A DNA stretch of 62,724 nucleotides, counting the filler. It is 7 parts of 7 records of this genome, joined end to end, with 100 filler letters (N's around TTAATTAATTAA, not from the genome) between each part and the next. Parts side by side here need not be neighbours in the genome. Positions count along the whole stretch, not along the records: positions 56,518 to 62,724 come from SRR31147125_19679; 6 more parts are not named here. One strand, given 5' to 3'. Of the stretch, positions 48,626 to 62,724 are shown one piece after another; within the stretch, counting starts at the first letter, position 1; every line of letters begins with the position of its first letter. A model generated the notes under the pieces. That model ran no database searches. It was not told the origin of the DNA and saw only the letters and a program-made list of their open reading frames with translations. The translations under genes and the position numbers were made by a program.

Positions 48626-50665
48626 TTATCTACCTTAGACGTTAGTTTCAATAATATAAAAAGTTTGGATAGATGGGTTTTTGAAAAAGATTGGAGTGTT
48701 TCGTCTGAATTTGGACCAAGTGGTATATCTATTGGCGACAAGATACAAACCCCACCCAAAGAAGTTATAGAATCGGGTAAAGAAAATGTCCTTAAGTGGT
48801 TTGATAAAAACAGAGCCCCAATAAAAGAAATGAGAGTTATCTTATTAGGCGAAGCGGAAGCTGGAAAAACATCTCTTGTAAAGGCATTAACAGGTGAGCC
48901 TCATGACAAAGATGAACCTACCACTCATGGAATCAATATAAAAAAATATGACTATGATGATTTAACAATAAACTACTGGGATTTTGGCGGACAAGATATT
49001 ATGTTTAGCACTCATAAATTCTTTTTATCCGAGGATTGTATATATATTGTGGTGATTGATTCAAGAAAAGATGAGTTACCAGAAAAATGGCTTAAGCAGA
49101 TAGAATCCTTCGGGAAGTCATCCGATACTTTTATTGTTGCCAATAAAATTGATGAGAACAAAAATATAGCTGTGCCTCAATACGAACAATACAACTTTAT
49201 AGTGGATACTTTTAAAGTGTCCTGTAGAGAACACTACAGAATCGATTTTTTTAAGCAAGAATTCATTCAATATATAAAAGATCATAATTCTTATAAAAAA
49301 GAATACCCTGTTGATTGGATTAATATAAAAAGCGCAATAGAAAATAATCCTGACGATTTCATATCACTTGATGCATATAAAAAGATATGTGAGGTTAATC
49401 ATGTTTTGGATATTGATGAGCAAAATAACTTACTAACAGTTTTACATCATCTTGGTACTATCCAGCATTTTGAAGATATTGAAGATAAGCAGATATTGAA
49501 GTCAGAATATATCACCGAAGCTGTATATGCTATTGTAACCAGCGACAAATACTTTGATAAAAAATGCGGAATACACAAGGACGATATTATAAAAATATTA
49601 AACGAAAAAGGTATAGATTCCAGACCACAGGTATCGCAAATTATTGAAATCATGAAAAGATATCAACTTTGTTATGAGAATTTGAATGGCAGAATAATTA
49701 TGCCCATTAAACTTGGAGTTAAACAAGATTATAATTATAAAAAGAGTGATGATCTCCTTAAAATCTATTACGATTATAATGATTTTATTGATGAATCTAT
49801 TCTACATAAAATCATAGTAAGTTTACATGATAAAATTTACAAAGAAATCGTTTGGAGAAAAGGTGTAGTTTTAGATTATTCTGAGAACTGCGGTTGTATG
49901 GCGGAGATTATTATGGATGAAATAGCAAGAAAAATTTATATCTCCATTTGGACTGTAAGTGATTTTTGCGACAAAAGAAATGTCTTATTTGATATAAGGC
50001 AGACAATCGATAGGATAAATCTTGAATACTACAAAGTTGTCGATAGTTCGCGTTATAAATGTATGATACCCATAATAAATAGCAAAGGGCAAGTTATAAG
50101 TGATGAAGGTGTGGAGTACAGCGAATTGATTAACATGCTTAAAAATAACGATAACACTTATACAAATCGCGTACCCTATGAGAAAATAAATATTTATACT
50201 TTACTTGGGTATATAGAAACAATAGAAAAGACTAATGAAAGTGTTAATAAAGAAAGAGGTGTACAACAGATGAAGTCAGAAACTCATATACATGTCGAGG
50301 GCGACTATATTGATCAAAAACATGCCAAAGGAAATACTTTTGGTAGAGTTGAAAATTCAAAAGTCAAAGCAGTTAATAAAGATTCCTTTAACAAGACTAA
50401 AGGACTTGATTTTGATATCAATGAACTTTTTAGTGCAATGCTTAATCAAAAACTAGATGATGAGCTAAGGGAGGATATTGAAGATTTAAAAGATAGAATT
50501 GAAGAATGCAAAGGACAGTATACCGCTAAACAGAAAAATAGATTTGCTCGTTTGTTTGATAGAATAAAAAACAAAATTGGCGAAACTATAAGCCTGCAAA
50601 ATTTTGCAGATGGAATAACTGTAGCTAATGGTATAGCCAAAGCTATCGCCTATTTTAGTGCATAG
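48626..50665 (+). CDS. Roco protein (LRR-Roc-COR), 5' truncated
   Basis: In-frame LRR LSTLDVSFNNIKSL at the contig start; TPPKEV; GEAEAGKTS P-loop; TTHGINI; WDFGGQ; NKID; COR motifs LHHLGTI and VWRKGVVL. Confidence 0.92.
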   Translation, partial: LSTLDVSFNNIKSLDRWVFEKDWSVSSEFGPSGISIGDKIQTPPKEVIESGKENVLKWFDKNRAPIKEMRVILLGEAEAGKTSLVKALTGEPHDKDEPTTHGINIKKYDYDDLTINYWDFGGQDIMFSTHKFFLSEDCIYIVVIDSRKDELPEKWLKQIESFGKSSDTFIVANKIDENKNIAVPQYEQYNFIVDTFKVSCREHYRIDFFKQEFIQYIKDHNSYKKEYPVDWINIKSAIENNPDDFISLDAYKKICEVNHVLDIDEQNNLLTVLHHLGTIQHFEDIEDKQILKSEYITEAVYAIVTSDKYFDKKCGIHKDDIIKILNEKGIDSRPQVSQIIEIMKRYQLCYENLNGRIIMPIKLGVKQDYNYKKSDDLLKIYYDYNDFIDESILHKIIVSLHDKIYKEIVWRKGVVLDYSENCGCMAEIIMDEIARKIYISIWTVSDFCDKRNVLFDIRQTIDRINLEYYKVVDSSRYKCMIPIINSKGQVISDEGVEYSELINMLKNNDNTYTNRVPYEKINIYTLLGYIETIEKTNESVNKERGVQQMKSETHIHVEGDYIDQKHAKGNTFGRVENSKVKAVNKDSFNKTKGLDFDINELFSAMLNQKLDDELREDIEDLKDRIEECKGQYTAKQKNRFARLFDRIKNKIGETISLQNFADGITVANGIAKAIAYFSA

Positions 50666-56517: not shown

Positions 56518-56758
56518 AAGGTCATTCGGAATATTCCGAATGACCTTCACTGTTATTTGTCATAGATATGTGCTTTATCGGATACACTTTACGAAAGAAA
56601 CTTTTTTCAAATTATTTCTTTTCGTACTCTACAATTCAAAAAGTTTTGAAATTAGAGTGTTGCCCCTTTAATAATATACTTTCCAATTTACTCTTGCTAT
56701 TATATTGAAAGCTTAAGTTTATGCCACACATAGCTATGTGTGGTATTTTTATTTTGCA
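56518..56758 (+). repeat. Structured non-coding element, copy 1 (5' truncated)
   Basis: 30-bp perfect palindrome at 56518-56547. Core 56550-56662 is about 83% identical (hand alignment) to 62575-62685. Terminator 56721-56758 is homologous to 59406-59442. Confidence 0.8.
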
Positions 56759-56766
56759 TAAACTGC

Positions 56767-59040
56767 CTAATTTAATTGAAAACCATCAAAGCTAAACATC
56801 TTTATGTCATACACATCCATCCTGTTGTTAAATACTAAAGTTGCACAGTAGTGCCAGTTGGCAATTTTATCAAGGTTGCATGAACACTCTGCACGATTAT
56901 AAAAATTATCTTTTTCCCATATAACGCTGTTGAATTGCCCATTTTCATCGAAAGTTACAAGCATACAATATGTAACTCCGTGATGCAAGTGCATATATTG
57001 ACTGTTAAAAGTTTCATAATACACCCTTTCATCGGTGTGATAATTAAATAAATATGGAACATTATCTCTGAACTTTATAAAACACCTATCTTCTTCGTTG
57101 TCGCTTTGGAACTCGAAATGGGTGTATTTTGCGTCCTTAGGATCAAACTCAATGTAAACCCCTTGCTGCTCTTTTTCGCCTCCGCAGTACTCTTTTATGG
57201 ATGTCTTTGTCCTAAAATATCCTTCGCCTTTACCTGATGTATATACGCAATAATCACTTTGCCCATTATTTTTCTGCTTAACATCCGCACCGTCATATGT
57301 ACTTATATCTAGGAAATCAAAGCCTTCCTGCTTAATTTCAACATTCGTTAAGTACACATCCATTATCTCGCTTAATGCTGCACCCTTTTCAAGTCCATAG
57401 TTTTCCTCAGGAGTACTGACTATTTCAGCCTGCATATCAGACTCTAAATCAGTATACTCCTCAAAGGCGAGAGTGATAGTTTCATATAGCTCAAATGTGT
57501 TATTTTCCTGCATGCGAAATGATAATTTCCAGTCACTGGTATCTGTAATTTTTGTTCTGCCCGACATATCACAGCTCTGATATGTACGGTTATAGTAATT
57601 ACCCTTTTCCCATAGAATTATCCTGAATACTCCTTGGTCATCAAAGGCTGCAGCCATGCAGTATGTACTGCCGTCTACCAGGTCAAACCCTGTTACAGAG
57701 TTATGAGGTGTTAAAGGTGCAGTCAGACAACTGAAATACGTATGTAAGTACTCTATATACATACCGTCTCTATTAAAGTATAAATAAATATCCTCTGCGC
57801 CACTGAATATAAACTTATGATTTTGATATTTATCAGCCTTAAACTCTGTATAGAATGCTACGTTACCAGAATTACCCGGTGTTACCTGACCTATTGTCAT
57901 ACCTCGCCAAAGTGATACATCTCCTGTATTGTCACCTGTGGTAAACGCATAATAATCATGTTCGCCGTTATTTGCTAATTCATAACTAGCTCCTATGCAG
58001 TCAAAATCAAATCTAACTGAATCCAGCGTTCCGTCATTTATTAAGTTTATACCCTCGAAGTATTTGCTCAGGATTTCATATTCCCCTGCATCAGTATCCA
58101 GTGAATAATTATACTCAAGAGAGTCTATATAGCCCTCACCAAATATATTACTATCTTGGTTATCATCATTCTGCTCATTTTCATCCCCGTGACTTTCGTC
58201 AAAGTATGTATGTTTGCTGTCTTCCAGCACCACCGGCTCTATGCTAAAGTACCTGTCCATCATGTCCGCATTACTTCGATACGCCGCTACATTGCTTTTT
58301 ATATACTGCTCAAAATCACCCTCATAAATGCCCAGCCAATCAATATGAGCAACCTCTGCATTATCCACACTCATCCAGTTTTCATCCACTGCTTCGCTAA
58401 ACATGCTTATTTCCACCGTGTCTGTCAGCCACTCTTCAGGCAGCTTTACAGAATTGTAGACGATTTTATCGTTATTTTCAGCGTCGGCTACCACTGTGCT
58501 AAGTGTGGCATCTTCCTTGCTGTAGTGTATAACCACATCCAGCCACTTATCTCCTGATAACAACGCTGTGCCTCTCAGCCAGAACCCCGTGAACCACTCG
58601 TCTGTATGAAGTTCGATATTTGGTGTTTCAGTGCAGGGCAGATAAAATCTTGCACCTTCGTTCATGCGATCCGGCCTACTGATATCTATCATATACCCTG
58701 AATACATCGTTCCCTTTGTAGTATTCTGCTTTACTCTTAAATGTATCAGCATATTGTCTTCCAGAAAATATTTTAATCCCGTTTCATGGTTTAGGATAAA
58801 CTGACCGTTCTCTATTGTGTTTTCCTCCCAGTAGCGGAACCATTCAGCATCTTCAATATCATCAAATTCAAGTTTCAGAATCTCCTGTATAGGGTCTGCC
58901 GTAGGCTGCGGCGTTGGGGTAATCTCTATAACAACTTCATCTTTTTTTAATAGGTTAATATCAAATACCTGCAATAATATTATCGCCGCAATCAATAGTA
59001 TGATTACGCCGATTAACACAAACAAAACGGACTTTTTCAT
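56767..59040 (-). CDS. Membrane-anchored acidic protein with internally repeated beta-rich domains
   Basis: N-terminal TM, TPTPQPT linker, repeats YCMAAAFDDQGVFRIILWEKGNYYNR / YCMLVTFDENGQFNSVIWEKDNFYNR. Confidence 0.85.
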   Translation of the reverse strand: MKKSVLFVLIGVIILLIAAIILLQVFDINLLKKDEVVIEITPTPQPTADPIQEILKLEFDDIEDAEWFRYWEENTIENGQFILNHETGLKYFLEDNMLIHLRVKQNTTKGTMYSGYMIDISRPDRMNEGARFYLPCTETPNIELHTDEWFTGFWLRGTALLSGDKWLDVVIHYSKEDATLSTVVADAENNDKIVYNSVKLPEEWLTDTVEISMFSEAVDENWMSVDNAEVAHIDWLGIYEGDFEQYIKSNVAAYRSNADMMDRYFSIEPVVLEDSKHTYFDESHGDENEQNDDNQDSNIFGEGYIDSLEYNYSLDTDAGEYEILSKYFEGINLINDGTLDSVRFDFDCIGASYELANNGEHDYYAFTTGDNTGDVSLWRGMTIGQVTPGNSGNVAFYTEFKADKYQNHKFIFSGAEDIYLYFNRDGMYIEYLHTYFSCLTAPLTPHNSVTGFDLVDGSTYCMAAAFDDQGVFRIILWEKGNYYNRTYQSCDMSGRTKITDTSDWKLSFRMQENNTFELYETITLAFEEYTDLESDMQAEIVSTPEENYGLEKGAALSEIMDVYLTNVEIKQEGFDFLDISTYDGADVKQKNNGQSDYCVYTSGKGEGYFRTKTSIKEYCGGEKEQQGVYIEFDPKDAKYTHFEFQSDNEEDRCFIKFRDNVPYLFNYHTDERVYYETFNSQYMHLHHGVTYCMLVTFDENGQFNSVIWEKDNFYNRAECSCNLDKIANWHYCATLVFNNRMDVYDIKMFSFDGFQLN

Positions 59041-59316
59041 ATGCTGCCTCTTCTCATATATTTACTAAGTGAATTATATCATAATAAGGAAATTGTATCA
59101 ATTATATGCAATCTCAGTTTGCACTATAAAATATCCCGTTTACCGAGGTTTATTTATGTAATATTGCGCCCTTATATGGATGAGCTAAATCAGTTTCATA
59201 TTGTTGACAATGGTTTTCGCAATCATCGTTTAACAGCCTATCCGCTGTTATCTAATGTGTACTTTTTTTGTTAAATATATTTTTACTGTGCCAAATAACG
59301 CCAAATATAGATAATC

Positions 59317-59442
59317 AATAAAAAGTGTACAGTGGAGAGCCAAGCGGTGAAGACTTGAACTTGTTAATATTTACTATTAACAAGTTGGAGTTGGATATGA
59401 AATTTATGACACACAATAATATGTGTGTCATTTTTATTTGCA
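59317..59442 (+). repeat. Structured non-coding element, short copy 2
   Basis: Shares 5' blocks (aataaaaagtg, tacagtgg.ga..caag) with copy 3 and the terminator with copy 1. Has a 12-bp hairpin at 59358-59386. Confidence 0.6.
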
Positions 59443-59510
59443 AAGAAATTCTATTATTGCTACAGTATTTAGATGAGTATATAAAAACATATATAATCAC
59501 AGGGCAATAT

Positions 59511-59840
59511 TTAACGTCTTCTTCTCTTCTTTTTCTTCGGCATAATAATATCCATAATCTCTGTATGCGAACTGTAGCCTTTGTTAATAAACTCAACCTC
59601 ACTCATCTGATGAACGATTGAAAGTTTAACAAAAATTGAACCCGGCTTGTTGTTGTAATACATCAGCTCCAGAAAACCATCAGCTTTTAATTTGTTAATA
59701 GATTCAATAAGTTCTGATTCTTTATTGTCAGCAAAGTTCTTTGCTACATCATTGAATGATGTATTTGAAGAATTATTGCTATTTTTACAGCGCTTTAATA
59801 AGTACACCAGTACTTTGTCAGCAAGTTGATATGACTGCAT
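59511..59840 (-). CDS. Small winged-helix-like protein with polybasic C-terminus
   Basis: GAGG RBS before the ATG at 59840; helix pattern ELIESINKLKADGFLEL; ends PKKKKRRRR. TTGACA-N17-TAATAT upstream at 59952-59980. Confidence 0.7.
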   Translation of the reverse strand: MQSYQLADKVLVYLLKRCKNSNNSSNTSFNDVAKNFADNKESELIESINKLKADGFLELMYYNNKPGSIFVKLSIVHQMSEVEFINKGYSSHTEIMDIIMPKKKKRRRR

Positions 59841-60019
59841 AATCACTTCCTCATTTCATAATAAAAATTATACTTAGCTTTTAATAATTCATCAATCTTT
59901 CTATAATATCAACGTTAAAAAAATTTACAAAAATTATACTGATGATTTGAAATATTACACCTAAAATTTCGCATTGTCAATCAAATTTTTTTGTTTTTAT
60001 TTTGCCTTAAAAATAAATA

Positions 60020-60047
60020 TTGACAAAATGAAAAAAAGTAATATAAT
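60020..60047 (+). promoter_or_regulatory. sigma70/sigmaA promoter
   Basis: TTGACA-N16-TATAAT, divergent from the promoter at 59952-59980. Confidence 0.75.
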
Positions 60048-60101
60048 TTCATTATCAAAATAATATTCGTGAAAAATTTCTGCAAGAATGAGGTGAAAAA
60101 A

Positions 60102-60251
60102 ATGTATGAATGTTGGCAATGCGGCGAGATATATGAAGGTAAAAAAGTTAATGGAAAAATAAAGGTATATGATGAATATGAAGATGAGTTTGTATCCTCT
60201 TGTCCTAATTGCGGTAGTAATGAATTTATGAAATATGAAGAAGAATACTGA
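60102..60251 (+). CDS. 49-aa Zn-ribbon protein with acidic tail (ends KYEEEY)
   Basis: GAGGTG RBS; CWQCG...CPNCGS. Confidence 0.8.
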   Translation: MYECWQCGEIYEGKKVNGKIKVYDEYEDEFVSSCPNCGSNEFMKYEEEY

Positions 60252-60413
60252 CAAGTTTTATTTCTTTTATTTATATATATTCATTCATTACCGTGATAAG
60301 AAAGACTTCTTTAATAACTTGAAAACAGGGGTCTTTTTTAAAAATCAGAATTAGAGTTAATTCTAATAAATTTCTATAATCTATAATACAAAATAAGAAT
60401 ATTGGTGAACATT

Positions 60414-61856
60414 ATGAAAATAATTTTTGGACAGCCAGCTAAGAAGATCCACCCGGATAACTTCGTTCTTGAACAGCATTATTATAACAAAGTAGTAAAC
60501 TCTCAAATCCATAAAGATGTTAGTTTCTTTTTTAACATGGGGAAAAACAGAATAATCGAAAGATACTGTCACCTCAATCCACTTATAGACAAACAATTTC
60601 TAAATAACTTATTAAATTATAAAGCCAAATACATTAATTGGTCAGGTACTGACTTGTTCCATGTTACCACTGAAAAAGGTAATAAAAGAATGGTTGTTAT
60701 TGAGACGAATTCATGCCCATCAGGCCAAAAATCAATGCCCCTTTTAAATGACTACAACGAAATGGGTGGATACGAACGCTTAATCAAAGAATCTTTTTTG
60801 CCTTATGTGCGAGAAAAAAGGATGATTAAAGGTGTTTATGCTGTTATTTATGATAAAAATGAAATGGAAGCTTCAGGTTATGCCAGTGCACTATCAAACA
60901 TTCTTAATCAGAATGTATATTTAGTTCAGTATTTTAATAATGATAATAATCCCAGTGTACGATTTAGAAACGATATTATGGAAATAAGAAATGAGCAAGA
61001 TGAATGGCTCCCTGTTTGTGCAGCATTTAGATATGTTACACAAAAACCTTGGAATAGAATACCAGTTAAATGCAAAACCATTATTTATAATCCTATAATT
61101 GCATGTCTTGCTGGCGGTAGAAATAAGCGTACTGCTTCTAAAGCTTATGATCTATTTAATGGTGAGTTAAAACCTTATGGACTAAAAATTCAGATACCTG
61201 AAACGATACAGGACGTAAAAATCCATGAAATTCCGTTGTGGATTGAAAGGTTTGGTTACCAAGCTGTAATTAAAAACCCGTATAGTAATGCAGGGCAAGG
61301 TGTTTATACCGTAACAAACAAAAGAGAATTAGATGATTTTATGAGTATTGAACACTCATATGATGATTTTATAATCCAAAGTTTGATTGGAAATTATCAG
61401 TGGAGCTCAACTAGCAGTGAAGGCAAATTTTATCATGTTGGTATGATACCAAACAAAAAAAATGAAATATTTGTCGCTGACCTTAGAATGATGATAGCAT
61501 CCACTAATAATGGATATAAACCTATAGCTATGTATGCCAGAAAGACTGCTGCGCCACTAAAAAATAATCTGACAGAAAATGATGATTCTTGGGAAATGCT
61601 TGGAACTAACTTATCTGTTAAGTTAGAAGATGGCTGGGGTAGTCAAATTGATAGATTAAAACTTATGGATAGGAAGGATTTTACTCTACTTGGACTAAGT
61701 TTAGATAATCTAATTGAAGGATATATCCAATCTGTGATGTCAACAATGGCTATAGATAAATTATCTGGACAGTTATTAACATCAAAAGGCCAGCTAAGAA
61801 AAAAATTGTTTAAAGCAATAAATGGTGACGAGATATTCAATAGTGAAATCATTTGA
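60414..61856 (+). CDS. Circularly permuted ATP-grasp-like putative peptide/amine ligase
   Basis: N-terminal IETNSCPSG (ExN motif), then VIKNPYSNAGQGV, IIQSLI, ADLRMMI and GTNLS in circularly permuted order. Alternative TTG start at 60402. Confidence 0.7.
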   Translation: MKIIFGQPAKKIHPDNFVLEQHYYNKVVNSQIHKDVSFFFNMGKNRIIERYCHLNPLIDKQFLNNLLNYKAKYINWSGTDLFHVTTEKGNKRMVVIETNSCPSGQKSMPLLNDYNEMGGYERLIKESFLPYVREKRMIKGVYAVIYDKNEMEASGYASALSNILNQNVYLVQYFNNDNNPSVRFRNDIMEIRNEQDEWLPVCAAFRYVTQKPWNRIPVKCKTIIYNPIIACLAGGRNKRTASKAYDLFNGELKPYGLKIQIPETIQDVKIHEIPLWIERFGYQAVIKNPYSNAGQGVYTVTNKRELDDFMSIEHSYDDFIIQSLIGNYQWSSTSSEGKFYHVGMIPNKKNEIFVADLRMMIASTNNGYKPIAMYARKTAAPLKNNLTENDDSWEMLGTNLSVKLEDGWGSQIDRLKLMDRKDFTLLGLSLDNLIEGYIQSVMSTMAIDKLSGQLLTSKGQLRKKLFKAINGDEIFNSEII

Positions 61857-62026
61857 TATTTCATCAACGAAATAGACTTTATCTTTGCAGTTATCGAATA
61901 TTTTTTATACTTCAAATGGTTCCGTTATTTACAGGCATAACAATTTTTTGTATCCTAAAATAATTGTTTATTAACAATTATTTCGGATTATAAATACCAT
62001 AATCTATATTAAAAAGGAGGAGTGGG

Positions 62027-62248
62027 ATGTATACATTTAGTGTTCAAGAGCAAGATGTTCTTATCAAAGCAATTGATGAATATTCATCCTGGTATAAGCT
62101 AACTAATCCAGAGTTTTTTGAAAATCTTAAATCATGCATCAGACAAGGAGATTTTTTAAGATTGGGTTACAAGGAAGTAATGTTTATTGCATCAATAAGC
62201 AAAAAACACTCAGATTATCAAGATAAAATATATAGTAGAAAGTATTAA
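62027..62248 (+). CDS. Hypothetical 73-aa protein
   Basis: Strong AAGGAGG RBS; co-oriented with the neighbouring genes. Confidence 0.7.
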   Translation: MYTFSVQEQDVLIKAIDEYSSWYKLTNPEFFENLKSCIRQGDFLRLGYKEVMFIASISKKHSDYQDKIYSRKY

Positions 62249-62307
62249 ATATACTTGTTATTGTTATAAATCTTAGATAATCAAAATTATTTTTAAGGAG
62301 GATTCGT

Positions 62308-62436
62308 ATGTTTTGTTGTAACGATTGCGGCGAGTTTTTTGATATTACTAAAAGACAAAAGCTTGTTTGCCCAAATTGCGGCAGTGTTAATGTTTATGAT
62401 GAAGAAGATGAATACTATTATGATGACGAAGATTAA
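62308..62436 (+). CDS. 42-aa Zn-ribbon protein with acidic/Tyr tail (not in the ORF track)
   Basis: AAGGAGG RBS; MFCCNDCGEFFDITKRQKLVCPNCGSVNVYDEEDEYYYDDED*. Confidence 0.8.
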   Translation: MFCCNDCGEFFDITKRQKLVCPNCGSVNVYDEEDEYYYDDED

Positions 62437-62502
62437 TCCGGATATAATCTAAACAAATTATATATTCTTTCTGTACAATATTTAAGATTGCAAAAAATGA
62501 CG

Positions 62503-62724
62503 AATAAAAAGTGCGGATGGCACATACAGTGGGGAAACAAGAGAACCTGTATTAGTTATCTAATGCAGGTTCTTCTGTTATCTATCATAGATACATACTA
62601 TGTGGATACACTTTACGAAAGAAATTTTTTCACAGTATTTCTTTGCGAACTATACAATTCAAAAAATCTTAAAAGTAAAGTGTTGACTCATTTGTAGGGG
62701 CTTGTTGAGTAATAATATTATTCA
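62503..62724 (+). repeat. Structured non-coding element, copy 3 (runs to the window end)
   Basis: 5' blocks shared with copy 2, a 14-bp hairpin at 62542-62573, and core 62575-62685 shared with copy 1. Confidence 0.8.

Follow-up and report, generated by a model that had tools for sequence, protein, structure and literature searches.

A predicted permuted ATP-grasp ligase encoded between two acidic-tailed zinc-ribbon proteins

The stretch of DNA analysed here (the window, 62,724 nucleotides) is composed of unrelated contigs joined by runs of N, and the locus that we describe lies on the last of these, at positions 56518–62724 (6,207 nt, 33% GC). The genomic context considered for this locus is the 6.2-kb contig itself. 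Four open reading frames (ORFs) follow one another on its plus strand: a 49-residue CxxC..CPxCG zinc-ribbon protein ending in KYEEEY (Zn1, 60102–60251), a 480-residue enzyme (X, 60414–61856), a 73-residue orphan (62027–62248) and a 42-residue zinc-ribbon protein with the C-terminus YDEEDEYYYDDED (Zn2, 62308–62436). X is predicted to be an ATP-grasp ligase with a circularly permuted fold, and the family to which it belongs is unnamed. We tentatively propose, as a quite plausible reading, that X catalyses amide formation on the acidic tails of proteins, the two Zn ribbons being candidate tail substrates in this lineage.

In this proposal, X would be an ATP/Mg-dependent amide ligase that converts a carboxylate to an acyl phosphate and then joins it to an amine, a capacity supported by its fold and conserved residues. 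Formation of an acyl phosphate from a carboxylate, followed by attack of an amine, is the general chemistry of ATP-grasp enzymes. The carboxylate may belong to a Glu or Asp within the D/E(/Y) tail of a small partner protein. The target appears likelier to be a side-chain (gamma) carboxyl, which would give a branch, than the terminal one, because Tyr or Phe is the last residue of many tails and because the closest fold is that of the GshA type, which activates the gamma-carboxyl of glutamate. The amine would be an amino acid or a polyamine, the latter being credible because of the polyamine genes found near X and its likeness to peptide-spermidine ligases. By analogy with RimK/RimB and the tubulin code, a RimK- or GshB-like partner may in most genomes extend or complement the product, and an AstE/AspA zinc hydrolase may remove or trim it. 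The fold bearing the tail would be interchangeable, being represented by a protein that we call T in Clostridia, by a protein that we call C12 in Saprospiraceae and by the two Zn ribbons here, which would serve as substrates or scaffolds rather than LysW-type pathway carriers.

Fold, motifs and relatives of X

A Foldseek search with the AlphaFold model of X (pLDDT 93.7, from a 110-sequence alignment) gave 87 matches in the PDB at E<=0.001; the rows listed were ATP-grasp proteins, with eukaryotic glutathione synthetases, 3K1T, 3N6X and GspS in the top ranks. In VIA-align, 42 chains reached Z>=8, the best being 3K1T (Z 18.1, root-mean-square deviation 4.0, 327 residues aligned), followed by ArgX (13.9), LysX (13.3), 3N6X (13.2), YgiC (12.7) and GspS (12.6), with TTLL11 at 11.3. 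Because unpermuted RimK, LysX and Ddl align only to residues ~140–449 of X, whereas the permuted GshA, GspS and glutathione synthetases align from residues 16–49, we consider the circular permutation to be real. The initial annotation had made the same fold call and suggested Foldseek as a check; that search returned the ATP-grasp fold, and AlphaFold and VIA-align uphold the assignment as well.

The metal-binding segment, formed by D80 and E97-x-N99 (followed by PSG), is placed N-terminally in X, ahead of R236/K238, K287-x-P..GQG, Q322, D356-x-R358, R376 and T398-NLS. Residues D80, E97, N99, K238, K287, G294-Q-G296, Q322, D356, R358, R376 and the TNLS motif are invariant in all 110 aligned homologues; their roles are presumably those of the equivalent residues in GshB and RimK. 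Based on the predicted fold and these intact invariant motifs, X is very likely an active ATP-grasp ligase.

We failed to place X in any Pfam family at E<=1, and sequence searches of the PDB returned no relative. Matches to the RimK/MptN NCBIfam models were below cut-off (RimK TIGR00768, 17.3 bits against a cut-off of 143.4). Homologues are abundant, with 3776 recognised among 8000 candidates scored and 707 representatives at the 50% level; the best 120 share 54–90% identity with X and come from Bacillota, Bacteroidota and Woesearchaeota. Some of the 50%-level representatives look eukaryotic, judging from gene-model fusions and long N-termini. Two such models (P0155 and P0156) join an X-like domain to a replication-factor protein that we take, from its motifs, to be Ctf18-like, and are probably mis-fused eukaryotic gene models. 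In a quick tree, X groups with P0001 and P0002 inside a Bacillota clade; together with the promoter and ribosome-binding-site styles, this tree points to a Clostridia-like member of the Bacillota as the host. A full-text literature search, covering listings and abstract openings, returned no paper on the X family. A mention in the Iyer et al. 2009 review on amidoligases or its supplements is possible, that review reportedly being the most relevant prior survey.

The closest structural relative, 3K1T from Methylobacillus flagellatus, is a GshA-type ATP-grasp protein (PF08886, annotated as "putative"). It shares with X the permutation and an ExN motif near the N-terminus, and the gshA-gshB pairing resembles the frequent pairing of X with a GshB-like gene. 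However, its identity to X is 11%, and the partners of X further include RimK, AstE/AspA and small proteins with acidic tails. PF08886 matched neither X nor 53 distant members, and the GshA feature of the Atlas appeared at rank 19 only (score 0.91). GspS and E. coli YgiC/YjfC are permuted like X (Z 12.6–12.7) and join a peptide carboxylate to a polyamine, and polyamine genes are recurrent neighbours of X (11 of 97 clusters); GspS and YgiC/YjfC differ in their 9–12% identity to X and in the lack of a family match. No Pfam match of X to the GspS, YgiC or CP_ATPgrasp families was found at E<=1, and two of the 53 distant members had matches to YheCD only, below cut-off. The known acceptors of GspS and YgiC/YjfC are small peptides, not protein tails. 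YgiC and YjfC are named peptidyl-polyamine synthetases in PMC12568646.

These comparisons bear on the main rival explanation, which we regard as possible but somewhat less likely: X may be a small-molecule ligase that produces a gamma-glutamyl amide or a peptide-polyamine conjugate, in the manner of GshA or of glutathionylspermidine/YgiC-like enzymes. The GshB/RimK-like partner would then add a residue and AstE/AspA would hydrolyse the product, the tailed proteins would be co-regulated binders of polyamines or cations, or else hitch-hikers, whereas the ribbons would be a bystander paralogue pair in an accessory region where X landed. The best-matching structures of the same permutation (3K1T, 3N6X, YgiC, GspS and the eukaryotic glutathione synthetases) are indeed small-molecule enzymes; against this, no X member tested reaches the Pfam GshA, GSP_synth or GSH_synth model.

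Among enzymes that act on protein tails, RimK is itself the operon partner of X in Clostridia. RimK is unpermuted and ~300 residues long, whereas X is permuted and has 480 residues, and the candidate substrates here are small and non-ribosomal; X did not qualify as a RimK family member, given the sub-cut-off TIGR00768 score, no PF08443 match and the permuted order. In the tubulin code, TTL/TTLL ATP-grasp enzymes write on D/E/Y-rich tails and M14 cytosolic carboxypeptidases, zinc enzymes, act as erasers. Tubulin tails can be likened to the EEEY end of Zn1, a likeness of logic that is analogy and not membership: TTL enzymes are unpermuted, TTLL11 aligns only from residue 139 of X, and X has no PF03133 match. 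The chemistry proposed for X resembles known ligase/peptidase systems acting on tails or peptides, yet X stands outside all of their families. According to PMC11957791, RimK acts on the acidic C-terminus of ribosomal protein S6 and has a dedicated eraser, RimB.

Acidic-tailed proteins at X loci

Zn1 (CWQC..CPNCGS..KYEEEY) and Zn2 (CNDC..CPNCGS..YDEEDEYYYDDED) are ~31% identical and end in YEEEY and YDDED, respectively. For Zn1 we identified generic Zn-ribbon matches in Pfam and NCBIfam, all under cut-off, and an Atlas search with Zn2 returned unnamed clusters only, at scores <=0.90. One homologue of Zn1 was found (P0273, 76% identity, ending KYEEDF) and two of Zn2 (72% and 87% identity over the locally aligned part), namely P0271, ending YYYDDDE, and P0272, ending YDYGPDYEYDD. 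The CxxC..CPxCG pattern is kept in both ribbons and in their homologues, and all three homologues retain an acidic/aromatic tail, with F, E and D as last residues. Since homologues exist and retain the tail, we conclude that Zn1 and Zn2 are real but rare genes. ORFs below 150 residues with a comparable acidic tail were absent from 490 kb of Clostridia control DNA, so that the tails seen here exceed chance, although the locus itself had been chosen for such tails.

It is highly improbable that the ribbons are LysW-like amino-group carriers holding a pathway intermediate on a C-terminal Glu and loaded by X. As in the LysW/LysX and ArgW/ArgX systems, the ATP-grasp ligase here is accompanied by a small, acidic-ended Zn ribbon that contains four Cys; Zn1 has a faint match to the Pfam LysW domain (E 0.089), and ArgX and LysX rank high among the structural matches of X. 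Yet the score against PF21344 is 12.9 bits for a cut-off of 27. In PMC10433800, LysW is defined by 3–4 Zn-binding Cys and a C-terminal EDWGE ending in Glu, and LysX by a GSWGR loop. The ribbons lack EDWGE, as the initial annotation had correctly stated, and end in Tyr and Asp instead of Glu. In X the GSWGR loop is replaced by NAGQG, no LysX model matches, and LysX is unpermuted, aligning to residues 140–449 only; moreover, the pairing of X with a ribbon is not conserved. The lysZ, lysY, lysJ and lysK genes are absent from the 6.2-kb contig, the part of the genome in view, and are not recurrent in 80 X loci, among whose neighbours no kinase, reductase or aminotransferase gene recurs. With the motif absent and no pathway gene in the 6.2 kb considered, the carrier reading raised in the initial annotation is largely refuted, failing on EDWGE, the terminal Glu and the GSWGR loop.

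Other X loci contain acidic-tailed proteins of different kinds. T is a basic, Cys-free protein of 62–72 residues, unrelated to the ribbons, with ends such as YDDYDYE, YYNEFEEY, YDYDQF and YDYEYEE. It is encoded inside the RimK-X operon in four genomes (G003, G420, G421 and G428) and elsewhere in the genome in G002 and G413–G416. X is present in eight of the nine T genomes; the ninth (G414) is without the whole 7.8-kb region including the flanking genes, probably through an assembly gap. No T was found among 398 other Clostridia, a sample from which X is likewise absent, and within its family T occurs in 7 of the 14 genomes with X compared with 1 of the 21 without (Fisher p 0.003, kinship ignored). 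In six genomes T lies next to an acyl-carrier-like ORF (L169:4637–5499; L180–L184:1255–1677; PP-binding 22.5 bits for L180) in which the attachment serine appears absent by eye, and G428 carries two acyl-carrier-like ORFs in tandem before T-RimK-X.

The T loci also invite the reading that the partner RimK/GshB-like ligase, and not X, acts on the tails. X would then provide an activated or dipeptide donor or do a parallel job, and a RimK from another part of the genome would serve the ribbons. In five genomes T tails end in EE, the classical acceptor end of RimK; T directly adjoins rimK in all four linked loci, and rimK lies directly upstream of X in 12 of the 13 intact loci of the G002 family (several of them near-identical). 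We nevertheless consider this reading quite improbable: the present contig has two tails and no second ligase, C12 directly adjoins X (upstream of it in three genomes), and tails ending in Y or F (Zn1, P0273, L169 and L170) are not RimK-type ends.

C12, a Bacteroidota protein of 95–140 residues whose D/E tail is long, belongs to no Pfam family and was first noticed near X in 5 of 80 loci and in L096 and L097. In a fresh sample of 121 Saprospiraceae-family genomes it was present in 38, of which 25 have X. The two genes lie within 6 kb of each other in 11 of these 25 genomes, compared with ~0.3% expected per genome; in five of the 11, C12 is directly adjacent to X and co-oriented (three upstream of X, two between X and the GshB-like gene), and in three it lies ~2 kb downstream. 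C12 also adjoins a deoxyhypusine-synthase-family gene in 9 of the 30 best C12 loci (L260, L262, L264, L267, L269–L272 and L283), and its N-terminal Lys is invariant, features that make it a candidate protein substrate of bacterial deoxyhypusine synthase. In the Heimdallarchaeon locus L016, the AstE gene next to X itself carries a fused acidic tail, EEEDDYYFDDDDDD, ending EEEDDYYFDDDDDDSDL.

Tailed ORFs within 2.5 kb of X were more frequent than in random stretches of comparable genomes: one comparison gave 3 in 63 kb against 1 in 490 kb (p 0.005), the other 10 in 333 kb against 0 in 240 kb (p 0.004). These counts leave out the present locus, and 90 kb of the 490 kb come from loci selected for their Zn-ribbon matches. 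DksA-like proteins, which occur in 13 of 80 loci and are mostly acidic-tailed, were discounted because genomes hold 1–3 long copies, mostly away from X. Across X loci, the tail recurs and the fold carrying it does not.

Protein tails or small molecules as possible substrates of X

For analysis of its neighbours, X loci were collapsed at 90% identity into 97 clusters including this one, 73 of which are informative (>=900 nt on both sides). A second ligase and/or an AstE/AspA hydrolase is part of the X cassette in 60 of the 73, and 13 have none; the parts are a GshB-like ATP-grasp in 43, a RimK-like ligase in 11 and AstE/AspA in 50. The distribution of X is patchy, with 14 of 35 genomes in the G002 family of Clostridia and 69 of 121 in the Saprospiraceae family; it was found in none of 399 other sampled Clostridia and none of 200 genomes in the order of Wukongibacter. 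Among 50,697 phage records there was no X, and among 72,556 plasmid records one, beside an AstE/AspA gene. Near X we also observed MscS in 11 and CorA in 5 of 80 loci, and a stand-alone SET-domain gene in four (L037, L046, L058 and L080).

The 11 clusters with polyamine genes within 6 kb of X extend across Clostridia, Bacteroidota and one metagenomic locus. The genes counted were those for arginine decarboxylase, agmatinase, the deoxyhypusine-synthase family, carboxyspermidine dehydrogenase and carboxyspermidine decarboxylase, the last two names being our interpretation of their Pfam families. An operon-like run in L003 (3–7446) comprises arginine decarboxylase, carboxyspermidine dehydrogenase and decarboxylase, a GNAT-RLAN-RimK fusion, T and X. 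These polyamine neighbours argue for a small-molecule substrate of X, as do the resemblance of the X plus GshB-like pair (43 of 73 loci) to gshA-gshB and the ties of C12 to deoxyhypusine-synthase-family, arginine decarboxylase and agmatinase genes. Such a substrate leaves unexplained the tailed genes in X operons without nearby polyamine genes, namely X-C12-GshB in L096, L258 and L268 and T-RimK-X in G420, G421 and G428, as well as the restriction of T to X-bearing genomes.

The association of X with Zn ribbons was examined in 125 other loci, comprising the best 80 of 584 genome loci, 34 metagenome loci and 11 wider loci from the Clostridia family, with ORFs re-called down to 20–25 residues; flanks of >=500 nt upstream and >=700 nt downstream were available for 89 of the first 114. 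The closest loci compared encode proteins 61–68% identical to X, the loci of the 81–90% relatives P0001 and P0002 lying outside the comparison. None of the 125 contains an acidic-tailed CxxC..CxxC mini-ORF; the few CxxC pattern matches are shadow frames without acidic ends. We identified no stand-alone ribbon homologue in 35 genomes of the X-rich Clostridia family, no stand-alone Zn-ribbon relative in five X genomes at E<=1 and none in viral contigs. Weak Zn-ribbon profile matches were present in 212 of 401 Clostridia; among the best 30 of these loci, the seven small matches proved to be FmdB-like ribbons without acidic tails, and the others lie within longer frames or are broken. A family-wide module of X and Zn ribbons is refuted, and the link may be confined to this lineage. 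The initial annotation had expected homologues of X to be co-located with acidic-tailed Zn ribbons and had itself named the lack of such co-location as grounds for abandoning its idea.

This result, and the lack of ribbon homologues in the X-rich family, weigh against the modification of acidic tails by X, and further observations point the same way. Zn1 and X are separated by a terminator-like hairpin (60297–60340, plus strand), Zn2 is two genes away from X, and the 6.2-kb contig has no second ligase or hydrolase gene; the hairpin and the 0 of 125 count also favour a small-molecule substrate. T is found in just half of the X genomes of its family, and the presence of C12 is independent of X (25 of 69 compared with 13 of 52 genomes, p 0.24). 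Within 1.5 kb, the 30 best C12 loci have polyamine genes in 11 cases and cassette genes in eight, three of the latter without polyamine genes; because C12 is as often near polyamine genes, a shared polyamine link could explain part of its adjacency to X. Most X loci are without a tailed neighbour, 96 clusters yielding 13 tailed ORFs within 2.5 kb of X, and near-versus-far tests within X loci were not significant (7 vs 7, p 0.12; 11 vs 11). The tail thresholds were fixed after seeing the data and the tailed matches stem from three families only, so the enrichment p-values overstate independence. Finally, X homologues remain ~50% identical out to probable eukaryotic members, which suits a small-molecule substrate at least as well.

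The broader idea of the initial annotation, that X belongs to a tail-modification system, therefore survives in part: two unrelated acidic-tailed families (T and C12) recur in X operons and ligase and AstE/AspA partners are usual, whereas the Zn-ribbon pairing on which it was built recurs in none of the 125 loci.

The surrounding contig and the significance of the X family

The ORFs, motifs, co-orientation, hairpin and orphan gene described in the initial annotation were all confirmed in the sequence, and 56518–62724 was recovered as a single assembled contig in run X1 (possibly the source sample itself). Upstream of Zn1 lies a sigma-70-type promoter (60020–60047, plus strand; TTGACA-16-TATAAT, 12/12), a consensus match that is the best of 42 sites. 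The ribosome-binding sites are GAGGTG for Zn1, AAGGAGG for the orphan and Zn2, and just GGTG for X. With intergenic gaps of 162, 170 and 59 nt, the Zn1-X-orphan-Zn2 run is not a tightly coupled operon. The 3' arm of the hairpin between Zn1 and X ends in a T-run, and its folding energy is -12.4 kcal/mol (z -3.1; 2 of 200 shuffles equally good); a strict terminator scan did not pick it up. Directly before two TATAAT hexamers, an AT-rich inverted repeat (7-4-7, 60347–60364) folds no better than chance as RNA (z 0.98) and is a possible operator or X's own promoter, judged by its sequence. A second AT-rich inverted repeat (I8, 61947–61994; 22-nt arms, 77% complementary) lies between X and the orphan, where the regional fold is not significant (z -1.4). 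The orphan has a strong ribosome-binding site and belongs to no family, and no relative of it was found in any X locus tested.

A strong hairpin (62541–62574, plus strand) closes the gene run and adjoins a dispersed repeat at the contig end. This ~120-nt direct repeat is present in diverged (~80%) copies at 56550–56669 and 62575–62692, each preceded by a strong hairpin, that at 56518–56547 being a perfect palindrome. Since read depth climbs at both contig ends (94 and 676, compared with 13.5 elsewhere), the repeat is a dispersed multicopy element; it has no Rfam match above the gathering score. Another palindromic repeat, ~40 nt long and 80% alike at 56715–56754 and 59400–59439, flanks the region of a 757-residue gene, occurs on other contigs of run X1 and is likely a shared terminator or repetitive extragenic palindrome (REP)-like element. 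The product of this gene (56767–59040, minus strand) is acidic and has no Pfam or NCBIfam family; it carries a membrane anchor at its N-terminus and, at its C-terminus, a module that appears to be repeated. An ORF of ~110 residues (59511–59846, minus strand), which diverges from the Zn1 promoter, has a faint HTH_36 match (E 0.044) and ends in KKKKRRRR; it may encode a regulator or represent a remnant. On another contig of the window, unrelated to the X locus, 48665–50665 (plus strand) encodes a 666-residue GTPase fragment with GEAEAGKT and WDFGGQ motifs, which we take to be Roc/COR-like.

The X family is large and highly conserved, being present in 69 of the 121 Saprospiraceae-family genomes, and is without a Pfam model; we found no solved structure and no paper. 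The acidic-tailed mini-proteins that recur in X operons are concrete and cheap candidate substrates for this orphan enzyme family, and the present contig offers a minimal test case with one ligase, two tiny soluble proteins and no confounding second ligase. If the substrate of X is a small molecule, the family would represent a new small-peptide or polyamine pathway in which the Zn ribbons are unimportant. At its widest, and in a form that we consider unlikely, the tail proposal would make X the founder of a class of permuted ATP-grasp enzymes whose task is to attach covalent branches to acidic protein tails. The branch would plausibly be a polyamine (spermidine, homospermidine or agmatine) or a first gamma-linked residue, which RimK/GshB-like ligases would extend and AstE/AspA would remove. 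Such a system would amount to a "tail code" of prokaryotes or to a nitrogen/polyamine store primed on proteins, with T, C12 and the ribbons as interchangeable scaffolds and orthologues in scattered eukaryotes. According to PMC11957791, known C-terminal poly-alpha-glutamylation of proteins is confined to ribosomal protein S6. If X does modify acidic tails, it would go beyond the S6 case, either as a second tail writer acting on new substrates or as an ATP-grasp enzyme that drives the polyamination of proteins.

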